NCBI GenBank assembly: GCA_963800275.1
Contig: CAWDAI010000008.1
Coordinates: forward strand, 19,447-83,446
Reading direction: 5' to 3'
Length of the DNA: 64,000 nucleotides
Origin: an uncultured Chloroflexia bacterium
GTDB taxonomy: Bacteria > Chloroflexota > Limnocylindria > Limnocylindrales > CSP1-4
The notes under the pieces are model-generated. The model saw only the letters and a program-made list of their open reading frames with translations. It did no database searches and was not told the origin of the DNA. The position numbers were made by a program, and so were the translations under genes. Positions 7,714 to 63,218 of the stretch are shown piece by piece; position 1 is the stretch's first letter, and each line of letters opens with the position of its first letter.

Positions 7714-7733
7714 GCGCCGATCCTGGCCGCTCG

Positions 7734-8333: not shown

Positions 8334-8422
8334 CCGCAGAGCCTACCAAGCGCAGGGCACAGGGATGGCCCGGGCGGATGTGGCCCGGGCCTCCGGCACG
8401 AGGGATCGGTGTGGGACTCGGT

Positions 8423-9469: not shown

Positions 9470-10195
9470 ATGCCTTCCCGGTCCACGTCCCCCAAGCCCA
9501 CCACCAAGTCGGCCACGGCAGTGGCCAAGCCCGCTGCCCGCTCGAAGGCAGTCGCGCTGCCGAAGGCGGCGGCCAAGGGCAGGTCGGTGGCCAGCTCGCA
9601 GAAGACCAGGGCCGCCAGCAAGCCGGTCGCGCCGGTGGTCCCCGAGCCACAGGAGCTGGTGCGGCCGCTGCTCAAGGTGCGACAGGCGCGTGAGTTCACG
9701 AGCAGGAAGGTGACGAGGGCCGAGCTCCACGCCATCACGGAGGCCGCGCGCTGGTCTGGCAGCAGCCGCAACGAGCAGTCCTGGCGTTTCATCGTGCTGC
9801 GTGACCGCACTCGCATCCGTGACATCGCCGAGCTGGGGCTGCCCCAGACTCGCGGACTCCGCACGGCCACGGCCGCGGTCGCGATCGTGTTGCCTGACGA
9901 GCCCGGCCGCGAGATCTCTCGCGCGTTCGACGACGGCCGCGCTGCGGAGCGCATGCTCATCGCCGCGCACCTGCTGGGTCTGGGTGGCGGCATCTCGTTC
10001 GTGCGGCGCGACGTCCGCGACCGCATCAACGAGGCCCTCGGTCTGCCGGCCAAGCGCTCGGTGCCCACGATCGTGGCCCTCGGTCACCCGACCGAGGACG
10101 CCCTGCAGTCGAAGTCACGACCTGGCCAGGCCCGGCTCCCTCGCGAGGAGGTCATCTTCGAGGAGCGTTGGCCGGACGAGCCTGCGCACCCATAG
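9470..10195 (+). CDS. Nitroreductase-family protein with N-terminal Lys/Ala/Pro-rich histone-like tail
   Basis: AAAGGAG RBS 6 nt upstream of ATG 9470. N-terminal 60 aa PKPTTKSATAVAKPAARSKAVALPKAAAKGRS... resemble actinobacterial HU/H1-like tails. The rest is a nitroreductase fold (RKVTRAELHAITEAARWSGSSRNEQSWRFIVL). Confidence 0.7.
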   Translation: MPSRSTSPKPTTKSATAVAKPAARSKAVALPKAAAKGRSVASSQKTRAASKPVAPVVPEPQELVRPLLKVRQAREFTSRKVTRAELHAITEAARWSGSSRNEQSWRFIVLRDRTRIRDIAELGLPQTRGLRTATAAVAIVLPDEPGREISRAFDDGRAAERMLIAAHLLGLGGGISFVRRDVRDRINEALGLPAKRSVPTIVALGHPTEDALQSKSRPGQARLPREEVIFEERWPDEPAHP

Positions 10196-17188: not shown

Positions 17189-20100
17189 GCGTCTTCTGCA
17201 CCAGCTGTGGCCAGGCCAATGGCGACGGCGCTGCCTTCTGCGACAGCTGCGGCAGCACGCTCAACTCGGGCTGTCCCGAGTGTGGTGCCGAGAACCGGCC
17301 CGAGGCGCGCTTCTGCCGTAGCTGCGGTACGCACCTGGCTGACGCGGATGTGCCGACGCCGGCGCCGGCTCCGGCCGGGACACGAACCTTGCCCGCATCG
17401 GCCGATGGCGGCACCGCGGAGCGCCGCCTGGTGTCGGTGCTCTTCGCCGACCTCGTGTCCTTCACCAGCTATTCCGAAGGCCGCGATCCCGAGCTCGTAC
17501 GTGAGACGCTGACCCGCTACTTCGAGGCCACGCGACACGCCATCGAGCATCACGGCGGCCGGGTGGAGAAGTTCATCGGCGATGCGGTGATGGCGGCGTG
17601 GGGCGCCCCCAGGGCCAACGAGGACGACGCCGAACGGGCGGTGCGCGCCGCCCTCGAGGTGGTCGAGGCGGTCCGCAACCTCAACGAGGGGCTGGAAGCC
17701 CGCGTGGGCGTGCTCACCGGCCACGCCGCGGTCACCGTGGGTGCGACCGACCAGGGCATGGTCGCGGGCGACATGGTCAACACGGCCGCGCGCCTGCAGG
17801 CAGCAGCTCCCCCCAGCACCGTGCTGGTAGGGGAGGCCACGATGCAGGCGGCGTCCGGCGCCATCGCCTTCGAGGAGGCCGGCGAGCAGGTCCTCCGCGG
17901 CAAGACGGCCCCGGTCCCGGCCTGGCGCGCCCTGCGCGTCATCGGTGATCGCGGTGGGCGCAGCCGCGGCGAGGGCCTGGAGCCCCCGTTCGTCGGCCGC
18001 GAGCTGGAGCTGCGCCTGCTCAAGGACCTGGTCCACGCGGTCGATGAGGACCGGCGTCCGCGACTCGTCTCCATCACCGGACCCGCCGGCATCGGCAAGA
18101 GCCGCCTGGCGTGGGAGTTCGAGAAGTACCTCGACGGCCTGGTCGACGGCGTCTATTGGCACCGCGGCCGTGCCCCCAGCTATGGCGACGGGGTCACCTT
18201 CTGGGCGCTCGGCGAGATGGTCCGCAAGCGGGCCGGGCTACTCGAGTCGGACGACGAGAACACCACGCGCGAACGGGTTCGCGCGACCGTCGAGGAGTGG
18301 GTGCCCGACCAGAAGGACCGGGCCTGGGTGGAGCCGGCGCTGCTGACCCTGCTCGGCCTCGAGCCACCACCGGCCGGCGGCCGCGACGTGCTCTTCGCGG
18401 CCTGGCGGATCTTCTTCGAGCGCGTGGCTGCGCATGGCACGACGATCCTGCTGTTCGAGGACCTGCAGTGGGCCGACAGCGGGCAGCTCGACTTCATCGA
18501 TCACCTCATGGAGTGGGCCCGTGACGTCCCCTTGCTGGTGGTGACCCTTGCCCGCCCCGAGCTGCTCGAGCGCCGGCCCGGCTGGGGCACCACGGCTCGT
18601 GCCTTCAATGCGGTCGGACTGGAGCCGCTCACGCCGGCCAATATGCGTGAGCTCCTGCTGGGCCTCGTCCCTGGCCTGCCCGCGGACGCGGTCTCGACGG
18701 TCCTCGAGCGAGCCGATGGCATCCCCCTCTACGCGGTGGAGACGGTCCGCATGCTGGTGGCCGACGGCCGCCTGCTGGCTGACGGCGACGGCACCTTCCG
18801 CCCGGCCGGCGAGCTCGGTGAGCTGGCCATGCCCGATTCTCTGCGGGCGCTGATCGCCTCTCGCCTCGACGCGCTTGACGATGCCGATCGCACCCTCCTG
18901 CAGGACGCGGCGGTGCTGGGCAAGACCTTCACGCCGGACGCGATCGCAGCCATCTACGGCCAGGACGAGGCGGAGATCGCATCGCGCTTGCGGGCACTCT
19001 CGCGCCGAGAGCTGCTGGAGATCGCGGTCGATCCCGCCTCACCCGAGCGGGGCCAGTTCGGGTTCGTCCAGTCAGTCGTCCGCGAGGTCGCTTACGAGAC
19101 CCTGTCCCGGCGTGATCGACGGACTCGACATCTGGCCGCGGCGCGCTACTTCGAGGGCCTGGGGGATGAGGAGCTGGCGGGCGTGCTCTCGACGCACTAC
19201 ATGGCCGCGTACGAGGCCTCGGAACCCGGTCCGGAGGCGGATGCGCTGCGCATCCAGGCGCGCCTGGCCCTGCAGGGGGCAGCCGAGCGTGCGATGGACC
19301 TGGGTGCCTACGACCAGGCTCGCCTGAGCTTGCAGCGGGCCCTCTCGATCACCGAGGACGCCGCGGAGCGAGCATCGCTCCTCGAACGCGCCGCCGCCGC
19401 CGCCGACATCGAGGGGGCATACGAAGAGGCCGAGCGGCTCGGCCGGGAGGCGCTCGCTGCCTACGAGTCCATCGACGACCATACCGGCGCGGCCCGGACC
19501 TCGGCCAGGCTGGGCATGATCCTGCTCAACGCCTCGCGGCTGACCGAGACCGTCGAGCTGCTGGAATCAGCGCTGGCCAAGGCCGATCGGCCGGAGGACG
19601 CGAAGCCGCGGGCCGAGATCCTGGCGAGCCTCTCTCGCGCCCACATGCGGCTGCTCCAGACGGAGCAGGCCCTGGCTCGGGCCGACGAGGCGCTGGCCAT
19701 CGCCGAGCCCCTGCGCCTGCGGCACACCATCGGCGAGGCCTTCATCAACAAGGCCGGCGCCCTATCGCAGTCGGGTCGGCTGGTGGAGCCGATCGTCTTG
19801 ATGTCAGCAGCCGTCGACCTGGCCCACGAGCAGGGTGACATGGCCCTCGAGCTGCGTGCGCGCAACAACCTTGCCGCCACCCAGGGCACGGAGGACGGCG
19901 ACGCCGCCATGCGGGTCAGCCGCGAAGCCTACGCGCTGGCCACGCGCCTGGGCATCCGACAGATGTCGACCTGGCTGGCTGGTGCCATCGCCCAGGGAGC
20001 GCTCTACGAGGGGCTCGACTGGGATACGGCGCTGCGCCAGGTGGATACCGAGATCGACGGCAGCATGTCCGACGCCGACCGGGTGCGACTGCTCTCGCTG

Positions 20101-20754
20101 CGCGAGGCGCTGATGGCCTTCCGCGGGGACGATCGGACCGAGCTGCTGGCTGCCCGCGAGCGGCTGACCGTGCAGATCAGCGATCCCGACGAGGAGTTGT
20201 CGGAGGCGGTGAATGCCGCGCATGCGTCGTTCGTCGACGGCCGCATCGACGAGGCGCTGGCCGCCTACGCGCCGTACATCCGGGCACAGACCCAGAACTC
20301 CCTGGAGGCACGTTGGGGATATGTCCTCGCGGCACAGTTCGCCCGAGACCCGGAGGCGGCTCGACGCGGCCTCGAGGCCCTGGACTTCGAGCCCTACGCC
20401 GGGACCTACGTCGACGGCGTACGCCGGCTGGCCGAAGCGGGCGTGGCCGCGCTCGAGGGACAGCCCGGGGCTGCGCTGGCGTCCTATCGCGCCGCTATCG
20501 AGGCCTGGCGCGCCTGCGGCGCCCGCTTCGATGTCGCCATCGCCCAGATGGCTGCCCTGACCTCGTTGCCAGACGAGCCGTCCATCGAGGGTTGGGCCGA
20601 TGAGGCTCGTGAGCGCTTCGAGATCGTGAGATCGCCGGCGCTGCTCGAGCGACTCGAGCAGGTGCTGGCGACCCGTGCCATCGAACGAGCCAACGGCACG
20701 CAGGCACCCGAGGCGAAGCCTGCCAATGCCGCCAGGGACGCAGGCGCGCGCTAG
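17185..20754 (+). CDS. Double zinc-ribbon / class III cyclase / P-loop NTPase / TPR-repeat protein, copy 2 (tandem paralog)
   Basis: ATGA overlap with copy 1. Same motif set (CTSCG...CDSCG...CPECG...CRSCG; FADLVSFT; IGDAVMAAWG; GDMVNTAARLQ; GPAGIGKSRLAWEF; LLFEDLQWAD). 1189 aa. Confidence 0.9.
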   Translation: MSVFCTSCGQANGDGAAFCDSCGSTLNSGCPECGAENRPEARFCRSCGTHLADADVPTPAPAPAGTRTLPASADGGTAERRLVSVLFADLVSFTSYSEGRDPELVRETLTRYFEATRHAIEHHGGRVEKFIGDAVMAAWGAPRANEDDAERAVRAALEVVEAVRNLNEGLEARVGVLTGHAAVTVGATDQGMVAGDMVNTAARLQAAAPPSTVLVGEATMQAASGAIAFEEAGEQVLRGKTAPVPAWRALRVIGDRGGRSRGEGLEPPFVGRELELRLLKDLVHAVDEDRRPRLVSITGPAGIGKSRLAWEFEKYLDGLVDGVYWHRGRAPSYGDGVTFWALGEMVRKRAGLLESDDENTTRERVRATVEEWVPDQKDRAWVEPALLTLLGLEPPPAGGRDVLFAAWRIFFERVAAHGTTILLFEDLQWADSGQLDFIDHLMEWARDVPLLVVTLARPELLERRPGWGTTARAFNAVGLEPLTPANMRELLLGLVPGLPADAVSTVLERADGIPLYAVETVRMLVADGRLLADGDGTFRPAGELGELAMPDSLRALIASRLDALDDADRTLLQDAAVLGKTFTPDAIAAIYGQDEAEIASRLRALSRRELLEIAVDPASPERGQFGFVQSVVREVAYETLSRRDRRTRHLAAARYFEGLGDEELAGVLSTHYMAAYEASEPGPEADALRIQARLALQGAAERAMDLGAYDQARLSLQRALSITEDAAERASLLERAAAAADIEGAYEEAERLGREALAAYESIDDHTGAARTSARLGMILLNASRLTETVELLESALAKADRPEDAKPRAEILASLSRAHMRLLQTEQALARADEALAIAEPLRLRHTIGEAFINKAGALSQSGRLVEPIVLMSAAVDLAHEQGDMALELRARNNLAATQGTEDGDAAMRVSREAYALATRLGIRQMSTWLAGAIAQGALYEGLDWDTALRQVDTEIDGSMSDADRVRLLSLREALMAFRGDDRTELLAARERLTVQISDPDEELSEAVNAAHASFVDGRIDEALAAYAPYIRAQTQNSLEARWGYVLAAQFARDPEAARRGLEALDFEPYAGTYVDGVRRLAEAGVAALEGQPGAALASYRAAIEAWRACGARFDVAIAQMAALTSLPDEPSIEGWADEARERFEIVRSPALLERLEQVLATRAIERANGTQAPEAKPANAARDAGAR

Positions 20755-23200: not shown

Positions 23201-23579
23201 CCTGGCTACTTCTTCTTCTTGCGTCGTCCTTCTTCTTGCCGTCGTCCTTCTTCTTGCCGTCGTCCTTCTTGCGGCCCCGGCCGAGCAGGGGGATCCTGCG
23301 CTCGTCCTCGATCCAGTGGGGCTTGGACGAGCGGGCCCAGGACGGACCGGCCTGGCGGCGCAGGATGATCCAGAGACCGATCACGCCCAGCACCGCCACC
23401 CCGAAGAAGATGATGCCGGCCAGGCGCAGCGAGCCGTCTGAAGACGCACCATCGAGCTTGGTGATGGCATCGGTGGAGAGATTGACCGCATCCTCGACAT
23501 TCCCTGCGATGGCTGCGGCAAGGGCCTGGTCGACGATGGCGTCCACGTCCACGCCGGCCAGCCCGAAGTCGGTGAGCAT
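23085..23579 (-). CDS. Single-pass membrane segment with Lys/Asp-rich tail. It is probably the frameshifted C-terminus of the upstream large secreted protein.
   Basis: DFGLAGVDVDAIVDQALAAAIAG continues the helical repeat style of gene 23381..26158. Then a TM helix LAGIIFFGVAVLGVIGLWIIL and KKDDGKKKDDGKKKDD (18-nt tandem repeat 23222-23272). Reading frame differs from the upstream gene by one base. Confidence 0.35.
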   Translation of the reverse strand: MLTDFGLAGVDVDAIVDQALAAAIAGNVEDAVNLSTDAITKLDGASSDGSLRLAGIIFFGVAVLGVIGLWIILRRQAGPSWARSSKPHWIEDERRIPLLGRGRKKDDGKKKDDGKKKDDARRRSSQVVLRNDGGGRGGAPPPATPRRGRGHHPAGRSRQAPLGL

Positions 23580-26158
23580 GTCACGGGGCTCGGCCGCCCG
23601 CAGCTGGGCGCGGTGGACCTAGCTGGCAGCGTCGGCCTGCTTCGACGGCGGTCTCGGCCCCGGCCTGCAGGTCCTCGCAGCGTTCGGGCGCTCTCGAAGT
23701 CGGACTTGATCGATTCGAGGGCGTTGAGGTCGGGCAGCTCCGCCTGCGCGTCGCTCGCAGACTTGATCCAGCGCTCTGCTTCCTTGGCGCTCTCGACCGC
23801 GGCCCCGAAGTTGCCGGCTGCGACCGGGTCGGCCACGACCGCGGGGATGTGCCAACTGGGCACCAGCAGCTCCAGCGTGGCCAGGGCGTTGCCCACGGTC
23901 ATCGCCTCCGCCGCGCGTGCCTCCACGCGCTTCCGCAGCGCGGCCATCTCCGCTCCGCTGGTGACCGCTTCGAACTGGGGCCGGACCTCGTCACGCAGGC
24001 CGGCCTGCGGCAGCGCCTCGTCCGCGCTCGTGGCGGCATCGACCACGGCCTGCGCGTCCCCGATGATCCTGGTGCCGGCGTCGATCTCGCCGGTCTCGAG
24101 CGGGCGCGTCACCGCGGCGGGGATGGCCCACTCGCCGGCCGCCACCTGCAGGGCCTCCAGCGCGCGTCCGGCGATGGACGCTTTGCGGTGGTCGGAGGCG
24201 GCTTCATCGGCCAGCGTCTGGAGGCTGGCGGCCGTGGCGCTGTTCTCGTAGCGGAGCTTGTATTTGTCGAGGAAGTTCGCCTGCGGCAGGGCGACGTCGG
24301 CGGCGGTGATCTCCTGGACCGCCCGAGTGGCCGGCGCGATGGCCGCCGAGATGTCACTCCAGCGCTGCTCGCTGAGGGCGTCGCGCACGGCCAGTGGCAT
24401 GAACCAGCCGGCCGGTGCAGCGCTCTGCATCGCACCAAGGTCGGGGGCCACGCCCCGGGCACCCTTGAGCAGGTTGTCGACGAACTCGGTAACCGCGTCG
24501 AGTTCCGCCTCGTTGGCGGCCGCCTCGAACTGCGGCTGCACGATGTCCGGCAGGTTGGCCACCGGCAGCAGCCGGTCGGCCTCGATGAGGTTCTGGTAGA
24601 CCTCGCGCGATTTGTCGATGCGGTCCATGGCGGAGCGGAACTCCCAGTCATCCATGTCCTTGCGCACGGCACGCGGCGCGCCCAGGGGGGCGATGTCGGC
24701 GAGAAACTGGTGGTAGGCGGCTCGCGCCTGTGAGCGCAACATCAGCTCGGACTCGCCGCCCGGCAGGTCCGCGGCGATGCCGAACCTGTCCAGCAGGTTT
24801 TGGGCGAAGTCGAGATCGTCGAGGTTGGCCGCGTAGGCCGGGTCGGCTGCGGCCGGCACCAGGCCGCGCTCATCGACCGCATCGAGCCATTCCCGATAAT
24901 CGACGCCGGTGGACGTCCCGGTCTCGGGACCCGCGGTGCCGATGTACTTGGTCTCTCCCCGAAGCATGGAGCCGACGACCTCGTCCCACTGCTCCTGGGG
25001 CATGCGCTCGCGGACGGCGGCGACGATGCCGCAGGCGGCGGCGTCCTGGGCCTCGATGCGGGTCTGATAGTCATCGGGCGACTGCGGCTGGACGACCATC
25101 CACTCGGAGAGGTCCAGCTCCAGCGGGTTGGCGGAGGCGGGCTCGCAAGTTGTCCCGCGCATGGCGCTCGCGGTCCACTCGGCCATACCCTCGCGCAGCC
25201 AGATGTCCGGGAAGTTGTCAGCTCCGTACCAGGCGTGGGCCAGCTGGTGGTCCGTAGCCTCCAGTGGGAATTCGCTGAGCTGGACGATGCCGGAAGCCCC
25301 GTGGGTGCTGGCGTAGCCACCGACGTCCCGCGACGGGGCCATGCGCACCACCACCGTACTGTCGCCCGGGATGGGCTGGCCGATGAAGCTGTCGAGGTCG
25401 CGCAGTACCTCGGGAGCGACGCTGCCGGCCGCATCCAGCCAGCCGTCACCACCGCTCCAGGCCTGCAACTCGAACGCACGGTCACGCGGACCGATGATCG
25501 TGTCCGGCAGGAGGCGGTCCTGGCGCACGCCCTCGAAACAGGTGAAGACCGAACCGGGCCTGTTCCTGGAGCTCGCGGTGGTTCGATAGCCGCTGCTGGT
25601 GATCTCCATGGGCGTGCCCAGCGGTTGGCTGAAGCCCCACTGGGAAAGGTCGTCCACGGCGACCGAGACGCTGCCCACGTTCGTGTCCTGGCCGGTCACA
25701 CAGAGGTAGATGTAGCTGTCGTTCACGCGCGCGGGCGTGGTGCGCTTGGCGGCGTTGTTGCCGGGGTCCGCATCGAGGGCGTAGCGCAGCGTGAAGGAAC
25801 CAGAATCACCCTGGGAGATGGGCTTCTTGTTGAGCACGGAGATCGGCTTCCAGAGGCCGGGAAGACTGTCCCGGCTCCTGGCGAGCGTGAAGGCTCCGGT
25901 GATGTCTGGCGGTGGCGCCGTCTCCTCGACGGCCAGCGGGCCCCAGGCCCGCTTCGGCCGCCAGGTCGTCCCGGTCAGCGGGCTCAACTTCACATCCATC
26001 CGCACATCGATGGTGCCCTCGTCCGGGTGGACCTGGTATTTCACATCCGAGGATTCCTTGAGCTGGTCGGAGATGGCGGCGACAGGCAGCGCCAGCACGA
26101 TCGAAGCCACGATCGCGAGCAGCAGCGAGACGAGGGCGCGGCAGGCCCCAGACGACAT
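23381..26158 (-). CDS. Large secreted M1-aminopeptidase-like (HQxxH variant) protein with C-terminal 45-aa helical repeats; 3' end apparently frameshifted
   Basis: Start MSSGACRALVSLLLAIVASIVLALPVAA (CAT 26156-26158). M1-type motif DHQLAHAWYGADNFPDIWLREGMAEW parallels HExxHxW...WLNEGFA but with Gln in place of the catalytic Glu. At least 4 repeats of ..ALPQAxLxD...QFEA... follow. The last 85 aa before the stop at 23381 have out-of-frame composition. Confidence 0.65.
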   Translation of the reverse strand: MSSGACRALVSLLLAIVASIVLALPVAAISDQLKESSDVKYQVHPDEGTIDVRMDVKLSPLTGTTWRPKRAWGPLAVEETAPPPDITGAFTLARSRDSLPGLWKPISVLNKKPISQGDSGSFTLRYALDADPGNNAAKRTTPARVNDSYIYLCVTGQDTNVGSVSVAVDDLSQWGFSQPLGTPMEITSSGYRTTASSRNRPGSVFTCFEGVRQDRLLPDTIIGPRDRAFELQAWSGGDGWLDAAGSVAPEVLRDLDSFIGQPIPGDSTVVVRMAPSRDVGGYASTHGASGIVQLSEFPLEATDHQLAHAWYGADNFPDIWLREGMAEWTASAMRGTTCEPASANPLELDLSEWMVVQPQSPDDYQTRIEAQDAAACGIVAAVRERMPQEQWDEVVGSMLRGETKYIGTAGPETGTSTGVDYREWLDAVDERGLVPAAADPAYAANLDDLDFAQNLLDRFGIAADLPGGESELMLRSQARAAYHQFLADIAPLGAPRAVRKDMDDWEFRSAMDRIDKSREVYQNLIEADRLLPVANLPDIVQPQFEAAANEAELDAVTEFVDNLLKGARGVAPDLGAMQSAAPAGWFMPLAVRDALSEQRWSDISAAIAPATRAVQEITAADVALPQANFLDKYKLRYENSATAASLQTLADEAASDHRKASIAGRALEALQVAAGEWAIPAAVTRPLETGEIDAGTRIIGDAQAVVDAATSADEALPQAGLRDEVRPQFEAVTSGAEMAALRKRVEARAAEAMTVGNALATLELLVPSWHIPAVVADPVAAGNFGAAVESAKEAERWIKSASDAQAELPDLNALESIKSDFESARTLRGPAGRGRDRRRSRPTLPARSTAPSCGRPSPVTCSPTSGWPAWTWTPSSTRPLPQPSQGMSRMRSISPPMPSPSSMVRLQTARCAWPASSSSGWRCWA

Positions 26159-26291
26159 GGGACGCTCCTCTGTGGATGCGGACATGGGTGAGTGCGGTTC
26201 TGTGCAGTTGGGACCGTAACGCGAACGCCAACAAGGGGCAAGGTGGACCATCGGCAGCGTCGGGACAGGACCGCTCACCCATACTCGGTCC

Positions 26292-27548
26292 GTGCCCCGT
26301 CGTCGCCTCGCCATGCTCTACGCCCTCGCGGGCATCAGCCTTGGGCTGATCCTGCCTTTCACCGTGCCGCTGCTCGCCGAACGCGGCCTGGGCGCGGTCG
26401 AGATCGGCGTGGTCATGAGCTTGACGGGGGTCGCGGCCCTGGTCTCCTATCCCGTGTGGGGCGCCATCGCAGACGGCTGGCTGGGCCGACGCCGGACCGT
26501 CGCCGTCGCGGCCGTGCTGGCGGCCCTCGGTGGCGTGTCGCTCATGCTGGCGGGTCAGGACCCGCTGGCCCTGGCCCTGGCCCTGGCCGTGGTCATCGTG
26601 GGCACGCTGGCCTGGAACCCGTTGATCGACGCGCTCGCGCTCGCGGTCCTGGGCGACGGTTCCTCCGACTACGGTCGGCTGCGCCTGTGGGGCTCGCTGG
26701 GCTGGGCTGCATCAGCCATGTCCGCGGGCGTGGTCTGGACGCTGGTCGGGCCGACGCCGGTGTTCCTCGCCTTCGTGGCGGCCGCGCTCCTGGTGGGCGG
26801 GCTGGTGCTCCTGCCGCTCCCGGGGGAGGTCGGGAGCGCCTCTGCCGGCGACGGCTCGGCCGGCGACGACACCCGCCCGCCGCTGCGCTCGTGGTTGCCG
26901 CTGGTGGCCACGCCGCTGATGCTCGGGTTCCTGCTCGGCCTGCTGGTCACCTCGCTCGGTGAGCACGCCTCGTGGCGCTTCATCGGCCTGCGCATCCTGG
27001 ACCAGGGCGGTGGCGTCTTCCTCATCGGCCTGGCGGCCTCATTGCCGGCGCTGGTGGAGGTCCCCGTGTTCCTCTCGTCGCGCCGGCTGGCTGGCTACTT
27101 CGGGCTGCGCCGGCTGTTCGTGGGTGGAGCAGCGGTCGCGGCCATCATCATGGGTCTCATCGCGGTCGCCCCCGAGCCATGGATGGTGGCCGGGCTGCGC
27201 ACCCTCGACGGAGTGTCCTACGCGATGCGCTACACGGCCATGGTGCTCATCGTGGGCGCCCTCCTGCCTCGCTCGCTGTTCGCCTTCGGGCAGTCGGTGG
27301 CCTGGTTCGTCTATGCCGGGATCGCCCCCATCGTGGCCGACGCGGCCGGCGGGCTCATCTACGAGGCCTTCGGGGCAGAGGCGCTGTTCCTGGCCACGAT
27401 GGTGGCGCTGGCCGTCGGGGGCGCCATCGTCTGGCTGGTGCTGCGCGGGCCGCGCTTCGGTCCGCAAGGGTCGCTGCCGGCCGCGGCGGCAGGATCGGTG
27501 GCTCCTCCGCCGGCGGGTCCCGAGGCACCGCTCCCGCCGCCGGGCTGA
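26292..27548 (+). CDS. MFS-superfamily transporter
   Basis: 12 predicted TM segments, MFS-like loop motifs (GAIADGWLGRRR); 418 aa (alternative start at MLYALAG). Confidence 0.8.
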   Translation: MPRRRLAMLYALAGISLGLILPFTVPLLAERGLGAVEIGVVMSLTGVAALVSYPVWGAIADGWLGRRRTVAVAAVLAALGGVSLMLAGQDPLALALALAVVIVGTLAWNPLIDALALAVLGDGSSDYGRLRLWGSLGWAASAMSAGVVWTLVGPTPVFLAFVAAALLVGGLVLLPLPGEVGSASAGDGSAGDDTRPPLRSWLPLVATPLMLGFLLGLLVTSLGEHASWRFIGLRILDQGGGVFLIGLAASLPALVEVPVFLSSRRLAGYFGLRRLFVGGAAVAAIIMGLIAVAPEPWMVAGLRTLDGVSYAMRYTAMVLIVGALLPRSLFAFGQSVAWFVYAGIAPIVADAAGGLIYEAFGAEALFLATMVALAVGGAIVWLVLRGPRFGPQGSLPAAAAGSVAPPPAGPEAPLPPPG

Positions 27549-43774: not shown

Positions 43775-44524
43775 TCACCGCAACTGCGCGTCCGACCGCT
43801 CAAACGACCCTCGGCCCTGGTCGACCTCGAAGGCGACCTCGTCGTCCAACTCGGTCACCGCGATGCTCCTGGCCGCGGCGTCCTTGAGCCGTTCGGCCTT
43901 CCTCAGCCCCAGGCGACGGTGTCCGGGGCCGGCGTTGGCGTCGGCCAGCGTGCCCGTGCGCTTCCGTCTCGCGACCGCCGCCGTGGGCGCGACCCGCAGG
44001 ACCTCCCGTGCGGTGCGGCAGGCCGGGTCGTCGAAGAGCTCGCCCAGCTCGGGGAAGCCCAGCTCCACGAGCCGGATGAGCCGCTGGCAGACCCGCGCCT
44101 GCTCGGTCACGAGCGTCATCGCGAAACGCGCGGCTTGGCGCAGCTCCACGCCCTCGAGCGGGTCGCGGGGGATGGCGTGGTCCTGCTGGGCCATGAGCGC
44201 GAGGCACCTCGCATCGGCCGGGTCGGACTTCGTGCGCTGCATCCGGCTCTTGGCAAAGTACTTGGCCCCGAGCGGGTTGACCACCCGCACCGGCATCGCT
44301 CCGCCACGCAGATGGGAGGCGAGGCCCATCCAGTAGTGGCCCGAGGACTCCATCGTGATCCGCCCCACCGGCTCGGGTTGGCGGGCCAGCCAGGCGTCGA
44401 GGCGGTCGAAGCCGGCGCGGTCCTGGGATACCCGCAGGACCTCGCGGTCGGCCTTGTCCTGTCCTGCGCGACAACGGGCCACCACGTGCTGCTTGCCGCC
44501 GATGTCGATACCCACCGTGATCAT
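43775..44524 (-). mobile_element. IS110-family transposase, 3'-truncated remnant (N-terminal DEDD domain only)
   Basis: MITVGIDIGGKQHVVAR... DEDD_Tnp_IS110 N-terminus and linker (...LVELGFPELGELFDDP...). It ends after 249 aa without the C-terminal Transposase_20 domain, only 28 bp from the neighbouring gene's stop. Confidence 0.7.
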
Positions 44525-48298: not shown

Positions 48299-48645
48299 AG
48301 GCTGCGGCACCCGTTTTCGAAGTCTCTGCCGGCCGCATCTAAAGGGTTCTCCTGATGTCCCCGCCGACCCTTTAGGCCCATCGTTCCGTTCAGACGCGAC
48401 GCCCCCGGTCGCGATCGAGCAGACAGGACGGACCGATGAACGACTACCAGATGACCCACCTGACCCAGACCGCTATGGCCGAGCGCCGCGCGGAAGCCGA
48501 TCGCCACCGACTGGTCCACTCCGCCCGCGGAGCGCGGTCGCGCTCGACGTCTGCCTTCGGTCGGGCACGACACTCACGCCTGGCATCGCTGCTGCGACGT
48601 GCCTGAGTGCCGGGGGCCGGCGGCGATCGCGGGTGGACTGCCCCT

Positions 48646-51624
48646 ATGATCGGCGCCATGGCGCGCAGGATGTCGAGCTCGGTGCTGGTCGGTCGGACCC
48701 AGGCGATGGAGACGCTCGGTTCGGCGCTCGAGCAGACGATCGGGGGTCGCCCCAGCCACGTCGTCATCGGCGGCGAGGCCGGGGTGGGCAAGACGCGCCT
48801 CCTGACTGAGGCCCGCAAACAGGCCGAAGCCAGGGGCGCTCGCGTCGTTTCCGGGGGCTGCGTCTCGATGGGTGCCGATGGCCTGCCCTTCGCACCCTAT
48901 ACGGAGATCATCCGCTCGCTGGTCGCAGCAGACGGCGCGGCCGCGGTCCGGGCCATGGTCGGCCGGGCTGCGCCCGACCTGTCCCGCCTGGTGCCCGCAC
49001 TCGATACCGGCCAATCGCCGCCGGAGCAGGAGCTGTGGGCGCAGACCCGCCTCTACGAGGCCATCCTGGACCTGCTGCGGCGCCTGGCCGCGCAGGGCCC
49101 CCTGGTGGTCCAGCTCGAGGACCTGCACTGGGCCGATGCGGGCACGCTCGCGGCCACCTCCTTCCTGCTCCGCGCCTTCGAGGCCGAGCCCGTCAGCATC
49201 TGGGCCACGTTCCGCGCCGACGAGATCACCCGGCGCCACCCGGTCCGTCCCTGGTTGGCGGAGGTCGTGCGCGACACCGACGTGGCGCGCATCGAGCTGG
49301 AGCCACTCGACCAGGCAGAGGTCGCGGCTCTCGTCGCACACATCCTCGGCTCTGAGCTGCAGGAGCGCGAGGTGGAGGAGATCCGCCGACGCTCGGATGG
49401 CAACCCGTTCTTCGTGGAGGAGCTGCTCTGCTGTCGCGATGACTACCAGGAAGCGCTGCCGGCCTCGCTCAGGGACGTCCTGCTGTCGCGCGTCGATGCC
49501 CTACCCGATGACGCCCAGCAGTTGGTCGGGGTAGCCGCCGTGGGTGGCCAGGAGGTGGAACACGACATCCTCGTTGCCATCGCCGGTGGTGTGGTCGCCG
49601 AACCAGGCTTGCGCACGCTGGTCGAGAGCGGTCTGCTGGTGCCGGTCCAGGCCATCGATGGCGATGACGCCTACGCCTTCCGCCATGCCCTGCTGCGCGA
49701 GGTCACCTACGAGGAGCTGCTGCCGGCCGACCGGCGACGCCTCCATCAGCGTTGGGGCGAGTTCCTCGCTGAGCATGGGCGAGGCGACGCGACCGATCCG
49801 GCGGGCCTCTTGCAGCTGGCCCACCACTGGCGCGAGGCTCGAGACGGACGCGCACTGGCGGCGTCGATCGTGGCTGGCGACGCGGCGATGGCCTCATTCA
49901 GCTACGAGACCGCCTCGCGCGAGTACGGCGAGGCGCTGGCACTGTGGGAGGACGGTCCGTCTGGCGACGCCGACATCGACCATGTCGAGCTGCTGGCCAG
50001 GGGCGCGCGCGCCGCCTATCTCGCCTCCGACTATCGGCGCGCGTCGTCCTGGTGTCGCTCGGCCATCGGGGAGGTCGACGCGGCCGATGCAGCTCGCCGG
50101 ACCACCCTGCGCATCCTGCTGGGACGGATCGAATGGGTCTCCGGTGATTGGGGTGCCAGCGTCGCCACCTATGAGGGCGCCCTTGCCGGTGCGCCGGCTG
50201 AGCCGCCCATCGTCCGTCTTCAGGCGCTGGCTGGCCTGGCCCAGGCATACATGCTCCATGCCCGGCTGCGCGAGGCCCGGCCCATGTTGGAGGAGGCCAT
50301 CGACGGCGCCATCGCCAGCGATGCCCGGGAGATGGAGGGACACGCCCGCAACACGCTCGGCGGGGTCCTCTCGGGCCTGGGGGAGGGTGACGCGGCACGG
50401 GCATCCCTCGAAGCGTCGTTGGCGATCGCCCTCGAGCTGGGCATCCCCGACGACATCGGTCGGGCTTACGTCAACCTGGCTGATGCCGAGAGCTCGAGTG
50501 GCTACCCCGAACGAGCCTTCGAGACATCGCTGCAAGGCATGCGTGTGGCGGCCGAGTGGGGCGTCTCCAACAGCTATGGCTCCTACCTGGGCTACGGCGC
50601 GGCCAGTTTCGGCTTCGAGTGCGGACGCTGGGACGAGGCCCTGGATCTGCTCGTGCGCGCCGACCGCATCTCCGGCTCGAGCGAAGGCTCGTATGTCTAC
50701 CGGGCGTCGTATGTCGCCGAGCTCTTTGCTTGCAGTGGGGACGAACGGTTCCCCGCCCTGTGGGAGCGGGCATCTCGCCTCATCCTTGAGCGACCGACTT
50801 CCCACACCCACGGTCCGCTCTTCATGGGCGGCATCGAACAGGCTGCCTTCAGGGGCGATCCGGGCCTGGCTCTGGAGCGCGCGCGGGAGGTCATCGATCT
50901 TCTCCACACCGTGGACGGCTCCATCCAGCTGGCCGGCGTCGCCCGCGTCGCGGCCTGGCCGGTAGCTGACCTGGGCGTGGCCGCCCGCCGCAGCGGAGAC
51001 GAGGCCGCCCTGGTGCGGGCACGGGCGGAGATGGATGAGCTTGAGCTGATCGCGGCCGCCTGGCAGAGCGAGGACATCGACCCCCACAGCCGCCTGGCAG
51101 AGGTCCTGCGGCTCGGTACGGGTGACCAGCTGGCCGCCGAGCGCGCACGTCTGGAGGGTACCGACACCGCCACACAGTGGGCCGACCTGGCCGACGCCTG
51201 GGCACGACTCGGCCGTCCCTTCCGCTCGGCCATGGCCCGCTGGCGCGAGGCCCAGGCTGCCGAGGCGAGCGCTGATCGCGAAATGGCCACGGCCGCCCTG
51301 CGCACGTCGCACCGGCTGGCCACCGAGCTCAGGGCACGGCCACTGCTGGAGGAGCTGGAGACCATGGCGCGCCGCCTGCGCGTGCGCCTGGCGGGCGGGC
51401 CAGCATCGGTGGCCGCTGAGCGAGCCTACGGCCTGACGCCACGTGAGCTGGAGGTACTGGCCGAGGTCGCCGCCGGCCACACCAACCGCGAGATCGCCGA
51501 GACGCTCTTCATCAGCGACTCCACCGCCGGCGTCCATGTCAGCAACATCCTGGGCAAGCTGGGAGTGGCCACCCGGACCGAGGCGGCACGCGTCGCCCTC
51601 GACCAGGGACTGCTGCCCGCCTGA
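48646..51624 (+). CDS. LAL-type (large ATP-binding LuxR-family) transcriptional regulator: AAA/STAND NTPase + TPR + C-terminal LuxR HTH
   Basis: P-loop GGEAGVGKTRLL, Walker B VVQLEDLHWAD, TPR-like repeats, C-terminal LTPRELEVLAEVAAGHTNREIAETLFISDSTAGVHVSNILGKLGV. The start is ambiguous (48607, 48646, 48658). Confidence 0.85.
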   Translation: MIGAMARRMSSSVLVGRTQAMETLGSALEQTIGGRPSHVVIGGEAGVGKTRLLTEARKQAEARGARVVSGGCVSMGADGLPFAPYTEIIRSLVAADGAAAVRAMVGRAAPDLSRLVPALDTGQSPPEQELWAQTRLYEAILDLLRRLAAQGPLVVQLEDLHWADAGTLAATSFLLRAFEAEPVSIWATFRADEITRRHPVRPWLAEVVRDTDVARIELEPLDQAEVAALVAHILGSELQEREVEEIRRRSDGNPFFVEELLCCRDDYQEALPASLRDVLLSRVDALPDDAQQLVGVAAVGGQEVEHDILVAIAGGVVAEPGLRTLVESGLLVPVQAIDGDDAYAFRHALLREVTYEELLPADRRRLHQRWGEFLAEHGRGDATDPAGLLQLAHHWREARDGRALAASIVAGDAAMASFSYETASREYGEALALWEDGPSGDADIDHVELLARGARAAYLASDYRRASSWCRSAIGEVDAADAARRTTLRILLGRIEWVSGDWGASVATYEGALAGAPAEPPIVRLQALAGLAQAYMLHARLREARPMLEEAIDGAIASDAREMEGHARNTLGGVLSGLGEGDAARASLEASLAIALELGIPDDIGRAYVNLADAESSSGYPERAFETSLQGMRVAAEWGVSNSYGSYLGYGAASFGFECGRWDEALDLLVRADRISGSSEGSYVYRASYVAELFACSGDERFPALWERASRLILERPTSHTHGPLFMGGIEQAAFRGDPGLALERAREVIDLLHTVDGSIQLAGVARVAAWPVADLGVAARRSGDEAALVRARAEMDELELIAAAWQSEDIDPHSRLAEVLRLGTGDQLAAERARLEGTDTATQWADLADAWARLGRPFRSAMARWREAQAAEASADREMATAALRTSHRLATELRARPLLEELETMARRLRVRLAGGPASVAAERAYGLTPRELEVLAEVAAGHTNREIAETLFISDSTAGVHVSNILGKLGVATRTEAARVALDQGLLPA

Positions 51625-59717: not shown

Positions 59718-60074
59718 GAGGAACCCCCTTCTTCGTGTGCCGCGCGCATGCCACTGACGTCGGTGCGGCGATGGCGCGCGGTGCGGGGCTCCGCGCGATG
59801 CACCGCGCATCGCCCCGCTGTTGTGCGGCGTCGTCTCATTCGCGACGCCCTACTCAATCTGTGCGTCCCCGCCCGCCCGCAGGTTCCGTCTCTGATGGCA
59901 GGCCTCTTCGGCTCTGGCCGCGGCCGCACGCTCGACTGGAGGCGCCACCCGGCCAACAGCACGCCGCAACTGGGCGCAACGGCACTGTCTGGGCCAGCTC
60001 GATCCGTGAATCCTGAACGTGGCCGCGTCGGCGCGGTAGCCGCGGACGCCCAAGCAGTTCACAGGAGAGTGATC

Positions 60075-60551
60075 ATGCCCAGCATGGACCAGGCCATCGA
60101 CGAGTTCCTGTCCCAGAAGCGCATCGCTGTCGCTGGTGTCTCGCGGACGGCCGGTGGCAAACACGCCAGCAACGGCATCTACTCCCGCTTCAAGGAGCGG
60201 GGCTATGAGGTCTTCCCGGTCAATCCCAACGCCGACACGGTCTTGGGCGATACCTGCTACCACAGCGTCAAGGACATCCCCGGCGGCGTGGATGCGGTGG
60301 TCATCGCGACCAACCCCAAGGCCTCGCTGTCGGTGGCGCAGGACTGCAAGGAGGCCGGGGTCGACAAGGTCTGGTTCCACAAGAACTTCGGCGCCGGCAG
60401 CTATTCGCAGGAGGCGTATGACTTCTGCCAGGCCAACGACATCACGGCCCTCGTGAGCTGCCCGCTCTGGTACGGCCAAACACAGGACGGCTTCCACAAG
60501 TACTTCGGGGCGGCCTGTCGGCTCCTGCGCCAGGTCCCGAGCGAGCTCTAG
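60075..60551 (+). CDS. CoA-binding domain protein (YccU-like, CoA_binding_2)
   Basis: AGGAGAG RBS; KRIAVAGVSRTAGGKHASNGIYSRFKERGYEVFPVNPN...VDAVVIATNP; 158 aa. Confidence 0.7.
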   Translation: MPSMDQAIDEFLSQKRIAVAGVSRTAGGKHASNGIYSRFKERGYEVFPVNPNADTVLGDTCYHSVKDIPGGVDAVVIATNPKASLSVAQDCKEAGVDKVWFHKNFGAGSYSQEAYDFCQANDITALVSCPLWYGQTQDGFHKYFGAACRLLRQVPSEL

Positions 60552-60582: not shown

Positions 60583-62202
60583 GTGAGCGGCCGAGGGCGC
60601 CCGTCGGATCGCTCGATCTTCATGGCCCGCATGCGCCGGACGCCCTGGCGTCGAGCGCTGCGCCAGGCCTGGCGTGAACGGGGGCGGGGGGATCGCCTGC
60701 TGCTGCCCGAGCGCCTCGAGGGCGCGGTCTACGGACACCTCTGCGGCGACGCGTTGGGGGTGCCCTACGAGTTCCAGCCGGCCACGGCCATCGGCGAGGT
60801 GACCTGGCGCGGTCACGGGACCCACGACCAACCGGCGGGTACGTGGAGCGACGACGGGGCACTCATGCTGGCGCTGCTCGACTCGCTCCTGCAGGCCGGC
60901 TTCGACACCGCCGATCAGGCGCGCCGGGCACTGGCCTGGCGCGACGAGGGGCGATATGCCGTCGGGGGTGTCGCCTTCGACGTGGGCAACGCCACTACCC
61001 GGGCGCTGCACGCGTTGCGCTCCGGCGTCCCGCCCGAGTCGGCCGGCGACACCGAGGCCACGGGCAACGGCTCGCTCATGCGCATCCTGCCCCTGCCTCT
61101 GATGCTGCGCGAGGTGGACGACGACGAGCTCATCGAGTCGGCAGCGCGTGCCTCACGGGTCACGCACGGCAGCGCCGAGGCCCAGCTCGCGTGTGCCCTG
61201 TACGTGTTGCTGGTGCGGGGCCTGCTGGACGGGGAGAACGACCGCGGAGCGGTCATGTCACGGGCGCGCCGCGTGCTGCGCGCCCACCTGGAGCGTGGCG
61301 GCCTGCCCGGGTCGAAGGAGGCCGCGGACCCGCTGCTCGCGGTGGCCGCGCTGGACGGTTTCGAGGCCTCGAGCGGTCGCGCCGGCCGGGGACGCGTGGT
61401 CGACAGCTTCTGGTCGGCGTGGGACGCGTTCGCCTCGGCCGACGACTACCCGGCCGCCGTAATCGCGGCCGTGCGCTACGGCAACGACACCGACACCACG
61501 GCCGCCATCGCCGGTGGCCTCGCCGGCGTTCACTTCGGCATCGCCGGGATCCCGCTCGAGTGGCACCGTGGCCTGCGCGATCGGCCCCTCGCCCAGCGAC
61601 TGATCGATCGGCTCGTGGAGACGGACGACTCCGAGTGGGACGGTCGCCACTGGAGCACCTCGAGCACGAACCCGCTGCGGGTCGATCTGCTCGAGCTCGC
61701 CGGCAGCGACATGGCCGCCGGCGGCGGTCGCTTGGGCATGACCTTCCTGCCGGGCAAGCGCTACCTGGCCTACTACAACGGACCACAGTGGCGGGACCTC
61801 GATAGCGACCTGGCGTCGCTCATCGATCAGGGGGTGGACACGCTCCTGCTGCTGGTCGAGGACAAGGAGCTCCAGCGCTGCCGGGTGACCCACATCGAGG
61901 ACGCTGCGGTCGCACACGGCCTGGAGCTGCTACGCCATCCGGTCCCCGACCCGCAGGTCCCCCGATCGGACGTGGCCTATCGCCGGGACGTGGCCGCGGT
62001 GGCCCGGCGCGTGCGCTCGGGCGGCACCGTCGCGATCGCCTGCCGTGGCGGGCTCGATCGTGCGGGCATGACCGCTGCCTGCCTGCTGCGCGAAGCGGGC
62101 CTGGACGCGGACACGGCCATCGATCGCGTCCACGCTGCACGTCGCCACACCCTGACCATGCCCGACCAGCTGCGCTACGTGCGGGCCTGGCCGCACGCCT
62201 GA
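60583..62202 (+). CDS. ADP-ribosylglycohydrolase (ARH/DraG-like) fused to a C-terminal Cys-based (CX5R) protein-tyrosine/dual-specificity-phosphatase-like domain
   Basis: ARH motifs: GAVYGHLCGDALGVPYEF, SDDGALMLALLDSL, GNGSLMRILP, YGNDTDTTAAIAGGLAGVHFG. C-terminal 170 aa carry VAIACRGGLDRAGMTAACLL (P-loop CX5R) preceded by a DSP-like fold. Alternative start at 60622. Confidence 0.8.
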   Translation: MSGRGRPSDRSIFMARMRRTPWRRALRQAWRERGRGDRLLLPERLEGAVYGHLCGDALGVPYEFQPATAIGEVTWRGHGTHDQPAGTWSDDGALMLALLDSLLQAGFDTADQARRALAWRDEGRYAVGGVAFDVGNATTRALHALRSGVPPESAGDTEATGNGSLMRILPLPLMLREVDDDELIESAARASRVTHGSAEAQLACALYVLLVRGLLDGENDRGAVMSRARRVLRAHLERGGLPGSKEAADPLLAVAALDGFEASSGRAGRGRVVDSFWSAWDAFASADDYPAAVIAAVRYGNDTDTTAAIAGGLAGVHFGIAGIPLEWHRGLRDRPLAQRLIDRLVETDDSEWDGRHWSTSSTNPLRVDLLELAGSDMAAGGGRLGMTFLPGKRYLAYYNGPQWRDLDSDLASLIDQGVDTLLLLVEDKELQRCRVTHIEDAAVAHGLELLRHPVPDPQVPRSDVAYRRDVAAVARRVRSGGTVAIACRGGLDRAGMTAACLLREAGLDADTAIDRVHAARRHTLTMPDQLRYVRAWPHA

Positions 62203-62357
62203 AGGCATCCCCGCACGCTCGGTCATTCCGCGCGGCGCTGCCCCATCTCCACGAAACCTCCACATCGGGTCCATCGGGACTGCGCACGCGCCTCTCATCG
62301 TCAGGGCATCGAACCCATGACGTGCGCCGAGAGCGCACCCCACAGGAGACATGCACG

Positions 62358-63218
62358 ATGCGAACCCGATCCCCCAAGTCCATCCTGGCCCTCTCCGGCG
62401 CACTCGCCCTCTCGGCCATGGTGGCCGTGCCCGTCGCGACCATGGCCCGCGGCTTCGGACCCGGCGCCGGGAGCTGCGACGGCGACTGCACCAACGATGG
62501 CGTCCAGGTGCAGCGTGCCCGCGCCCAGGACGAGAGCCGCGCGACAGCCGGGCAGCAGATCCGCGCTCGCGACGGATCGGCCGCCGGTGTCGCGGCTGAC
62601 GACAGCGCCACGGCGGGCCTCGGCCGCGGTCCAGCCGCCGGCAGCGCGGGCAAGGGCGTCCGTGCCAATGGCTACGGCAGCGGCAACGGCGCCGGCTACG
62701 GGATCGGCAGCAACGGCGCCGGCAACGGACCCAACCTCGACGGCGATCGTGGCCCCGGGACCTGCGGCGAGTGCACCGCCGAGATGGGCACGCTGACCGA
62801 AGCGCAGGTGGCCGATCTCGTCTTCATGGCCAACGAGGAGAAGATGGCGCACGACGTCTACGCCGCCCTCGCTGATCTGCACGACGTGCGCCTCTTCAGC
62901 AACATCGCCGCCTCCGAGGCCCGCCACTTCGAAGCGGTCAACACCGTCCTCGAGCGCTACGATCAGGAGACCTTCGCGCTTGACGATGACTTCACCGACC
63001 CGGTCCTCGAGTCCCTCTACACCGAACTGCTGGGGCAGGCCGGTGACGACCAGGCGGCTGCCATGGCGGTGGGCCTGACCATCGAGAGCACCGACATCGC
63101 AGACCTCAAGTCGCGCATGGCCGAGCTCGAGACGACCGCCCCCGATGCCCACCAGCTGTACACCCATCTGCTGGCCGGAAGCGAGAACCATCTCCAGGCC
63201 TTCGAGCGCTGGAGCTGA
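62358..63218 (+). CDS. Secreted DUF2202 (ferritin-like) domain protein with Gly/Ala-rich N-terminal region
   Basis: Signal peptide; low-complexity G/A/N stretch; ferritin-like helices VADLVFMANEEKMAHDVYAAL...ASEARHFEAVNTVLERY; 286 aa. Confidence 0.65.
   Translation: MRTRSPKSILALSGALALSAMVAVPVATMARGFGPGAGSCDGDCTNDGVQVQRARAQDESRATAGQQIRARDGSAAGVAADDSATAGLGRGPAAGSAGKGVRANGYGSGNGAGYGIGSNGAGNGPNLDGDRGPGTCGECTAEMGTLTEAQVADLVFMANEEKMAHDVYAALADLHDVRLFSNIAASEARHFEAVNTVLERYDQETFALDDDFTDPVLESLYTELLGQAGDDQAAAMAVGLTIESTDIADLKSRMAELETTAPDAHQLYTHLLAGSENHLQAFERWS

Follow-up and report, generated by a model that had tools for sequence, protein, structure and literature searches.

Why would an ADP-ribosylglycohydrolase (ARH) and a cysteine phosphatase be joined on a single chain, with no ADP-ribosyltransferase (ART) gene beside them? 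The question is raised by an open reading frame (ORF) in a 64,000-nucleotide stretch of DNA, here called the window, from an uncultured Chloroflexia bacterium (GTDB order Limnocylindrales, CSP1-4; contig CAWDAI010000008.1, positions 19,447 to 83,446). A first-pass annotation, made from the sequence alone, had described the product as an ARH fused to a CX5R phosphatase of protein tyrosine phosphatase (PTP) type and had proposed a range of substrates for it. Here, we report that the ORF is one genuine gene, whose fusion is conserved and whose two folds and catalytic residues are intact, and that it is a further member of a fusion type already described by comparative genomics. As to its role, we lean towards a chromosomal, vertically inherited bifunctional enzyme that would remove and process ADP-ribose (ADPr) and would be wired to the turnover of nicotinamide adenine dinucleotide (NAD) and ADPr. 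The gene and its parts are as follows:

60583..62202, + strand: ARH-PTP fusion gene, an uninterrupted ORF with a GTG start, 539 amino acids (aa) plus stop
60583..60702, + strand: Arg-rich N-terminal extension, aa 1-40, containing PWRRA and specific to lineages linked to a CoA-binding gene
60703..61617, + strand: ADP-ribosylglycohydrolase (ARH/DraG-type) domain, aa 41-345, PF03747
61636..62199, + strand: KAP/CDKN3-like cysteine phosphatase (R-P / DSP-PTPase) domain, aa 352-539, with a conserved N-terminal lead-in
61948..61950, + strand: codon of D456, predicted general acid of the PxPD loop, by alignment to a PIPD loop
62035..62067, + strand: P-loop (CX5R) I485-A-C487-R-G-G-L-D-R493-A-G495, that is, IACRGGLDRAG, aa 485-495

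The G+C content at third codon positions (GC3) of the ORF is 0.89 and uniform, typical for real genes in ~70% GC sequence. Similarity to a distant homologue starts at residue 7, which supports the GTG at 60583 as the start; the N-terminal extension is modelled with low confidence (predicted local distance difference test [pLDDT], 49-58), is conserved with homologues of sub-lineage A' (see below) from residue 7 and is missing in most 501-aa homologues. A search of 5.8 billion proteins recovered the full-length two-domain architecture in >100 clusters (53-94% identity), some of them carrying the JGI name "ADP-ribosylglycohydrolase/protein-tyrosine phosphatase." In an alignment of 81 homologues, the catalytic residues of both domains were invariant or nearly so and the inter-domain linker was partly conserved (DRLxETD and W..RTSTxSPLRVD). 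The full-length AlphaFold2 model built from this alignment had a mean pLDDT of 92.1 and a predicted template-modelling (TM) score (pTM) of 0.90, and therefore the ARH and PTP domains are predicted to form one rigid body. The first-pass annotation had asked whether two neighbouring genes might have been joined by an indel in assembly or annotation. Apparent frameshifts in five homologues from long-read metagenome-assembled genomes (MAGs; L021, L022, L025, L043, and L049) would fit such an artefact, but an architecture common to >100 independent full-length homologues, the conserved linker, the even GC3 and the confident rigid model all speak against it, and the homologues, the 81-sequence conservation and the model together rule it out. 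The frameshifts themselves are probably assembly indels, not pseudogenes.

Over the N-terminal half, PF03747 (ADP_ribosyl_GH) matches aa 47-325 (E 7.1e-64; 216.7 bits, cutoff 26.2) and spans profile positions 1-286 of 287. The motifs SDDGALMLA (aa 89-97), GNGSLMRI (aa 161-168), and YGNDTDTTAAIAGGLAG (aa 299-315), like the phosphatase loop IACRGGLDRAG, all lie where the first-pass annotation had placed them, and it was right on both domain calls, with both catalytic sets intact, and on the single polypeptide. By published ARH structures, E63, S89-D90-D91, D133, D302, D304, and T305/T306 are the candidate metal and catalytic residues; the 81 homologues keep them invariant or nearly invariant, and 8za7, 2cwc, and Tri1 have equivalent motifs with which they align. 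Sequence matches in the PDB were 8za7 (E 6.8e-37), 2cwc (1.3e-34), Serratia Tri1 (6dre; 6.2e-22), and DraG, and with target-normalised Foldseek TM scores of 0.81-0.86 to 8za7, 2cwc, and DraG, this half has the all-helical ARH fold. By sequence and by Foldseek, the nearest relative is Listeria Lmo0067 (8za7), deposited as "ART-ARH toxin effector-immunity pair," followed by a Thermus ARH-related protein, the Serratia immunity protein Tri1, and DraG, with ARH3 more distant; our literature search found no papers on Lmo0067 or 8za7. Since its scores fall far below the NCBIfam equivalog cutoffs (Tri1, NF041672, 117.8 bits against 490; DraG, TIGR02662, 84.6 bits against 337.05), the ARH half is a relative, not a member, of these two families.

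These comparisons ally the ARH half most closely with arginine-specific hydrolases and with immunity proteins, and mark it as a predicted hydrolase. It shares fold and catalytic motifs with DraG, Tri1, and Lmo0067; unlike them, the window protein has a C-terminal phosphatase and stands without an adjacent ART effector, DraT, or nitrogenase. The Pfam scan of called genes found no DraT and no nitrogenase/nif genes in the window, and an ART effector beside the ARH-PTP gene was absent both from the window and from the 56 related loci that we collected in all.

These affinities bear on the substrate. The first-pass annotation had assigned the protein to the substrate space of DarT/DarG-type and RNA 2'-phosphotransferase-type systems, and in a pathway of that kind, the ARH would free a terminal phosphate at nucleic-acid ends or in ADPr-1''-phosphate and the phosphatase would then remove that phosphate. 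ARH3 and SCO5809, which reverse 5'/3'-phosphate-linked RNA/DNA ADP-ribosylation (PMC11833690), lend the idea some support. Its resemblance to DarT/DarG and Tpt1/KptA is one of general theme only (reversal or processing of ADPr joined to phosphate and nucleic acid or placed next to them), whereas the fold is ARH, not macro, and the window and related loci hold no macrodomain, DarT, or Tpt1. None of the 56 related loci carries DarT, Tpt1/KptA, another ART, a macrodomain antitoxin, an RNA ligase, or a kinase, nor do they have a linked repair cassette of RtcB type, a ligase, or a polynucleotide kinase; a lone RtcB lies 7 kb away in L010. Both halves are, moreover, much closer to protein-directed enzymes, the ARH half being closest to the arginine-specific hydrolases and immunity proteins 8za7, Tri1, and DraG. 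The earlier placement was thus not borne out, and we consider this pathway very improbable.

The C-terminal half is recognised by CDKN3 (PF05706; 25.1 bits, cutoff 20.7) and PTP-SAK (PF22784; 27.2 bits, cutoff 27), comes slightly below the cutoff for Tc-R-P (PF22785; 26.8 bits, cutoff 27) and fails that for DSPc (PF00782; 14.9 bits, cutoff 33.5). Its profile scores thereby make it a member of the CDKN3/PTP-SAK/Tc-R-P group, not of Pfam DSPc; of the Pfam assignments anticipated at first pass, PF03747 held, and DSPc gave way to CDKN3 and PTP-SAK. HMMER alignments to Tk-PTP and ShufPTP lay PVPD on PIPD and ACRGGLDRAG on HCMGGLGRSG, which identifies C487, R493, and D456 as the catalytic set; the Cys and Arg, whose absence the first-pass annotation had named as grounds for rejection, and the Asp all align with those of bona fide PTPs. 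From what is known of PTPs, we take the Asp of the PxPD loop (D456) to be the general acid. In the 81-sequence alignment, D456, C487, R488, G490, R493, and G495 are invariant or nearly so.

This half has the PTP fold; its structural relatives are KAP first, then SsoPTP (score, 19.1), Tk-PTP (17.9), PRL-1, VHZ, and PTPMT1, and the RNA 5'-phosphatases BVP and PIR1 score just 14.6 and 13.9. With KAP/CDKN3, SsoPTP, and Tk-PTP, it shares a compact cysteine-phosphatase fold, a CX5R loop of the GGLxR type, and a general-acid Asp loop, and with KAP, it also shares an N-terminal lead-in. It differs from KAP and the archaeal PTPs in its low identity (23-27%), in a P-loop reading A-C-R-G-G-L-D-R-A-G instead of H-C-x-G-G-L-G-R-S-G, in the extra conserved motifs TSTxSPLRVD, TFLPGK, and HWRDLDxD, and in the ARH fusion. 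The loop departs from the HCX5R(S/T) consensus at A486, before the Cys, and at A494, after the Arg; S, A, and T all occur after the Arg within the family, and H or A precedes the Cys in the wider subfamily, whose P-loop consensus is [HA]C[RK]GGLGR[TAS]G and of which the window lineage is an A-C-R-G-G-L-D-R variant.

At E <= 1e-30, the PTP profile retrieved 369 clusters (50% identity representatives). Sampled multi-domain members showed that the subfamily has been fused independently to ARH (in both orders), PARG, Macro, HD, DUF6508, and ARPP-1, and because three unrelated ADPr-removing folds are among these partners, the domain architectures provide strong evidence that the subfamily would work on ADPr-related substrates. 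Examples among P0252, P0367, P0263, P0269, and P0383 (L055, L056) include PTP-PARG, PTP-kinase-Macro, and a 1521-aa GDSL-PTP-TPR-ARH protein, and an ARPP-1-PTP fusion occurs in a Myxococcales MAG. Stand-alone PTP paralogues (42-45% identity; L052 7001-7579, L053 7001-7756, and L054 7001-7543) were considered as split ARH/PTP pairs and rejected, with PemK/PIN toxin-antitoxin neighbours and no ARH; in L052, TY-Chap1 and an AAA gene lie ~6 kb off.

The link to NAD comes from related loci. A genome-wide scan with the PTP-domain profile gave 41 loci, all in Chloroflexota MAGs of Limnocylindrales type. Clade A relatives (63-78% identity in the PTP domain) have the order CoA_binding_2, ARH-PTP, DUF2202, response regulator, histidine kinase, FeoAB, cytochrome bd. 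Clade B consists of more distant full-length relatives (~50-57% identity), and in 15 of its 18 distinct loci, a NUDIX + WHD_NrtR regulator is immediately adjacent, either upstream on the same strand or divergent; a 16th locus ends at the contig end, inside an upstream nadR-like gene. In L007 (5410-9307), L008 (5592-9473), and L009, the fusion belongs to a four-gene nrtR-pnuC-nadR-ARH-PTP operon with overlapping or near-touching frames; the nadR of the L007 and L008 operons is NMNAT/RNK-like, and ARH-PTP is the last gene. The two lineages are paralogues, since one MAG holds both a copy linked to the gene for the coenzyme A (CoA)-binding protein (L028) and one linked to NrtR (L035). The clade-B NrtR homologues lack the catalytic Nudix box, like classical sensor-type NrtR, which makes them sensors; NrtR responds to ADPr (PMC2330246).

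Two AT-rich palindromes are candidate NrtR boxes of Limnocylindrales-type Chloroflexota, judged by their sequence and position. Exact TTATAC-N9-GTATAA occurs in five loci and the core of a second palindrome, TTAGNTG...TGCATAA[AC]TGCA...CATCTAA, which overlaps a TTGACA promoter, in six, in both cases in NrtR-adjacent intergenic sequence only:

TTATAC-N9-GTATAA sites: L010 7907-7927, L038 6923-6943, L040 6927-6947, L045 6917-6937, and L049 6867-6887
Second palindrome sites: L030 4328-4339, L031 3325-3336, L034 4479-4490, L039 1415-1426, L041 2549-2560, and L046 3980-3991

A precedent for this arrangement is the nrtR-draG operon of Streptomyces (Rodionov et al. 2008, PMC2330246). Like that operon and the NrtR regulon, the sister lineage has a catalytically dead Nudix-winged-helix regulator beside an ARH gene, palindromic operator-like sites, and pnuC-nadR in the same operon. 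Unlike the NrtR-draG operon, the ARH here carries an extra phosphatase domain, and the window copy is not linked to NrtR, having either lost that neighbour or never possessed it. A tblastn search of the window gave no NrtR, PnuC, or NadR, TTATAC-N9-GTATAA had no match within 2 mismatches, and the TGCATAAMTGCA core had two chance-level matches only, far from the ARH-PTP gene, although NrtR may be encoded outside the window or may act through another kind of operator.

In place of NrtR, the window lineage, which is one of soil Chloroflexota, has its own partner gene and upstream element:

60075..60551, + strand: stand-alone CoA_binding_2 protein, 158 aa (PF13380, E 9.8e-25)
59972..59987, + strand: conserved upstream cis-element GGGCGCAACGGCACTG, candidate promoter or operator of the CoA-binding/ARH-PTP pair

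The CoA-binding protein (nearest solved structures, 1y81 and PH1109 2d59) has a ribosome-binding site, AGGAGA, ahead of its ATG at 60075, and 31 nt separate the end of its gene from the ARH-PTP ORF; neither a sigma-70 promoter nor an intrinsic terminator was found in this gap. The gene stands directly upstream of ARH-PTP wherever the upstream flank is present in clade A and sub-lineage A' (24 distinct loci), and the pair persists even where all other synteny is gone; the two genes are probably co-transcribed. In clades A and A', the GGGCGCAACGGCACTG block precedes the start of the CoA-binding gene by ~90-115 nt (~90 in the window) and is nearly invariant in 17-19 aligned upstream regions. Its 10-mer AACGGC[AC]CTG occurs once, on the + strand and at the same relative position, in 22 CoA-linked loci and in none of the NrtR-linked loci, with 2 stray matches in ~0.7 Mb; the window holds no second copy of the element that would hint at a regulon. 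A riboswitch or leader RNA was considered and rejected: there was no Rfam match and no conserved RNA fold (RNAalifold, -2.8 kcal/mol, no covariation), and the block was therefore treated as a DNA element. It is probably a promoter or operator, and we put it forward as a candidate.

Around the pair, the immediate neighbours are CoA_binding_2, SnoaL-like, YceI-like, DUF2202, and OmpR-type response regulator genes, in a housekeeping neighbourhood (ABC transporter, YceI, DUF2202, two-component system, FeoAB, and cytochrome bd) whose order is conserved across many MAGs. About 48 window genes were called by codon-position GC and scanned against Pfam; among them, and with ~8 ORFs lacking a Pfam match, there was no ART, Macro, sirtuin, NUDIX, or NAD-salvage gene, in agreement with the first-pass annotation, which had seen no cognate ART.

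The partner gene persists in a sub-lineage in which the ARH decays. A' comprises L028, L029, L032, L037, L044, and L048 (~7000-8570 in each) and P0242 from a 2.4-Mb contig. The motifs GVPYEF, WSDDG, GNGSLMR, THG, and GNDTDTT are lost from the A' ARH domains, and ~110 ARH residues are missing from P0242 as well, whereas the phosphatase motifs and P-loop are all intact, except where assembly introduced a frameshift into L048. Between pairs of A' sequences, identity averages 0.37 over the ARH domain versus 0.73 over the PTP domain (clade A, 0.71/0.69; clade B, 0.63/0.59), and other window neighbours tested (SnoaL-like, DUF2202, response regulator) are not retained in A'. The identities and the motif loss therefore point to the phosphatase as the constantly selected activity.

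This decay suggests another reading, in which the indispensable activity would be the cysteine phosphatase and the ARH an ADPr-recognition module able to lose catalysis, the whole acting with its CoA-binding partner as a housekeeping phosphatase of phospho-ADP nucleotides such as 2'-phospho-ADPr, NADP(H), ADPr-1''-phosphate, or the 3'-phospho-ADP moiety of CoA. Besides the loss of ARH motifs in at least 6 independent A' genomes in which phosphatase motifs and CoA-binding partner persist, 213 of 243 subfamily members have a basic residue directly after the catalytic Cys, a trait shared with phosphatases of polyanionic non-protein substrates (PTEN, PTPMT1, and Siw14); the CoA-binding fold recognises a 3'-phospho-ADP group; and the sister lineage sits in a NAD-salvage operon. 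On the other hand, the PTP half comes structurally nearest to protein phosphatases, the nearest ARH relatives are protein Arg-ADPr hydrolases, the ARH is under normal constraint in the window's own clade, and the PTP-NADK Pfam family gave no significant match for the window protein. We regard a nucleotide phosphatase of this kind, and with it the demotion of the ARH to a recognition module, as doubtful. If this were true, the CoA pool would be coupled to the turnover of NAD(P) and ADPr, and the enzyme might account for an NADP or phospho-ADPr phosphatase activity that has not yet been assigned in bacteria.

The fusion type itself has been predicted before. Iyer, Burroughs, Anantharaman & Aravind 2022 (Viruses 14:1977; PMC9503650, section 3.8) described ARG + R-P systems, in which ARG occurs without a linked ART, the R-P phosphatase is fused or coupled in over half of the neighbourhoods, and Nudix-HTH or WYL regulators are found in 42% of systems, with occasional alarmone-type HD phosphatases, chaperones, restriction endonucleases (REases), and ARPP; the authors proposed host systems undoing phage ADP-ribosylation. 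Neither "CoA" nor "PnuC" occurs in the main text of that paper, and Chloroflexota is not among its listed lineages. Like those systems, the window protein is an ARH fused to an R-P/DSP-PTPase with no linked ART, the sister lineage adds a regulator of Nudix-HTH (NrtR-like) type and, at some loci, an HD gene of alarmone type, and ARPP-1, Macro, and PARG are further fusion partners of the PTP subfamily. Unlike them, the window copy has no adjoining Nudix/WYL regulator, chaperone, REase, or ARPP and lies in stable housekeeping synteny rather than in a variable neighbourhood, its lineage comes with a CoA_binding_2 gene as obligatory partner and with an upstream element of its own, and some sister copies lie inside the nrtR-pnuC-nadR salvage operon. 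The window copy accordingly has the ARG-centric core (ARG, R-P, no ART) and lacks the regulator, the accessory genes, and the variable neighbourhood. The first-pass annotation had missed this published class, the nrtR-draG operon, and the NrtR/NAD-salvage and CoA-binding context. In our literature search, the NrtR/NAD-salvage wiring, the CoA-binding partner with its cis-element, and the ARH-dead variants were not found described.

Following Iyer et al. 2022, the fusion could be a dedicated anti-phage counter-measure, in which ARG + R-P would strip ADPr placed by phage ARTs on host macromolecules, the phosphatase would degrade the released ADPr, and an ADPr-sensing Nudix-HTH repressor would switch the system on. 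Section 3.8 of PMC9503650 fits both the architecture and the neighbouring Nudix-HTH (NrtR-like) gene, and it also fits the HD_4 (RelA/SpoT-type HD, alarmone-type) gene that follows the fusion in L008 and L009; the ARPP-1 fusion points the same way, as do AbiE and integrase genes near L008, a linked ART found nowhere, and a PTP-ARH relative of reversed order that adjoins ResIII/RE and N6_N4 methyltransferase genes. The biochemistry would be common to this reading and to the one that we favour. For the window locus, the anti-phage reading is weakened by the housekeeping synteny, which is stable across many MAGs and no variable island, and no transcription factor, chaperone, REase, or ARPP stands beside the window copy. 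PADLOC defence models had no match in the window, and in clades A and B, both domains change at an ordinary rate, neither outpacing the other (identities above). The co-operonic pnuC-nadR genes of L007 and L008 fit metabolism as well as defence, and the finding of no relatives of ARH-PTP on viral contigs is neutral for a host-side system. Overall, we judge an anti-phage role unlikely.

For the bifunctional ADPr-processing enzyme that we favour, we infer the two enzymatic activities, their substrates, the order of the steps, co-transcription, and regulation as follows. The N-terminal binuclear-metal ARH would hydrolyse an ADP-ribosyl linkage, most likely ADP-ribosyl-arginine on a protein by its nearest relatives, on a target modified by an enzyme encoded elsewhere. 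The rigidly attached KAP-like phosphatase would then remove a phosphomonoester via a Cys487 thiophosphate intermediate, with R493 binding the phosphate and D456 as general acid, either from the same target or from the released ADPr-derived nucleotide. The module would be tied to NAD consumption and ADPr signalling, not to a cognate toxin. Control in the sister lineage would lie with the ADPr-sensing repressor NrtR, and the gene there is sometimes the last one of a nicotinamide-riboside salvage operon, and in the window lineage, NrtR control may have been replaced by the upstream element GGGCGCAACGGCACTG and the obligatory CoA-binding partner gene. The locus would be inherited vertically, in stable housekeeping synteny.

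Several points weigh against this enzyme as we picture it. A strict mechanism of ARH first and phosphatase second is not universal, because A' lost the ARH motifs and kept the phosphatase; these ARH-dead, phosphatase-intact variants defeat the two-step scheme as a general rule. The ADPr/NAD link is by analogy, transferred from a paralogous lineage at 50-57% identity because the window has no NrtR gene or operator, and the role of the CoA-binding partner is left unexplained. The P-loop has neither the usual His before the Cys nor a Ser/Thr after the Arg (A494), and its kinetics may differ. Finally, our literature search found no experimental papers on any ARH-phosphatase fusion.

Elsewhere in the window, downstream synteny from 62322-63218 onward is conserved in L001-L005 (DUF2202, OmpR regulator, histidine kinase, FeoA/FeoB, and cytochrome bd). 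The DUF2202 protein is ferritin-like with a low-complexity Gly/Ala-rich N-terminus, and the stretch from DUF2202 to cytochrome bd may be an iron/oxygen-related unit, separate from the ARH-PTP finding. Two tandem paralogous giant genes at 13595-17188 and 17185-20754 (+ strand; 1197 and 1189 aa) combine a Zn-ribbon, an adenylate/guanylate cyclase, and AAA_16 (STAND-like), and 48607-51624 holds a third such AAA_16 gene, AAA_16-TPR-LuxR. The only sign of a mobile element seen in the window is a transposase gene, or a fragment of one, of the IS110 family (DEDD_Tnp_IS110) at 43775-44524 (- strand). Four ORFs without a Pfam match at E <= 1e-3, at 23381-26314 (- strand), 8423-10087 (- strand), 11333-12577 (+ strand), and 424-1632 (+ strand), have a strong coding signal (GC3, 0.79-0.89), the largest encoding 977 aa.

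For the window itself, the annotation is correct but was already anticipated. The wider interest lies in the family: ARG + R-P fusions are widespread, the phosphatase subfamily alone numbering 369 clusters, and the Chloroflexota family makes a clean test case because it contains an NrtR-wired lineage, a CoA-linked lineage, and a natural ARH-dead/phosphatase-alive variant. Three alternatives are thereby made testable: repair of ADP-ribosylated proteins, defence against phage ARTs, and processing of phospho-ADPr-type metabolites.

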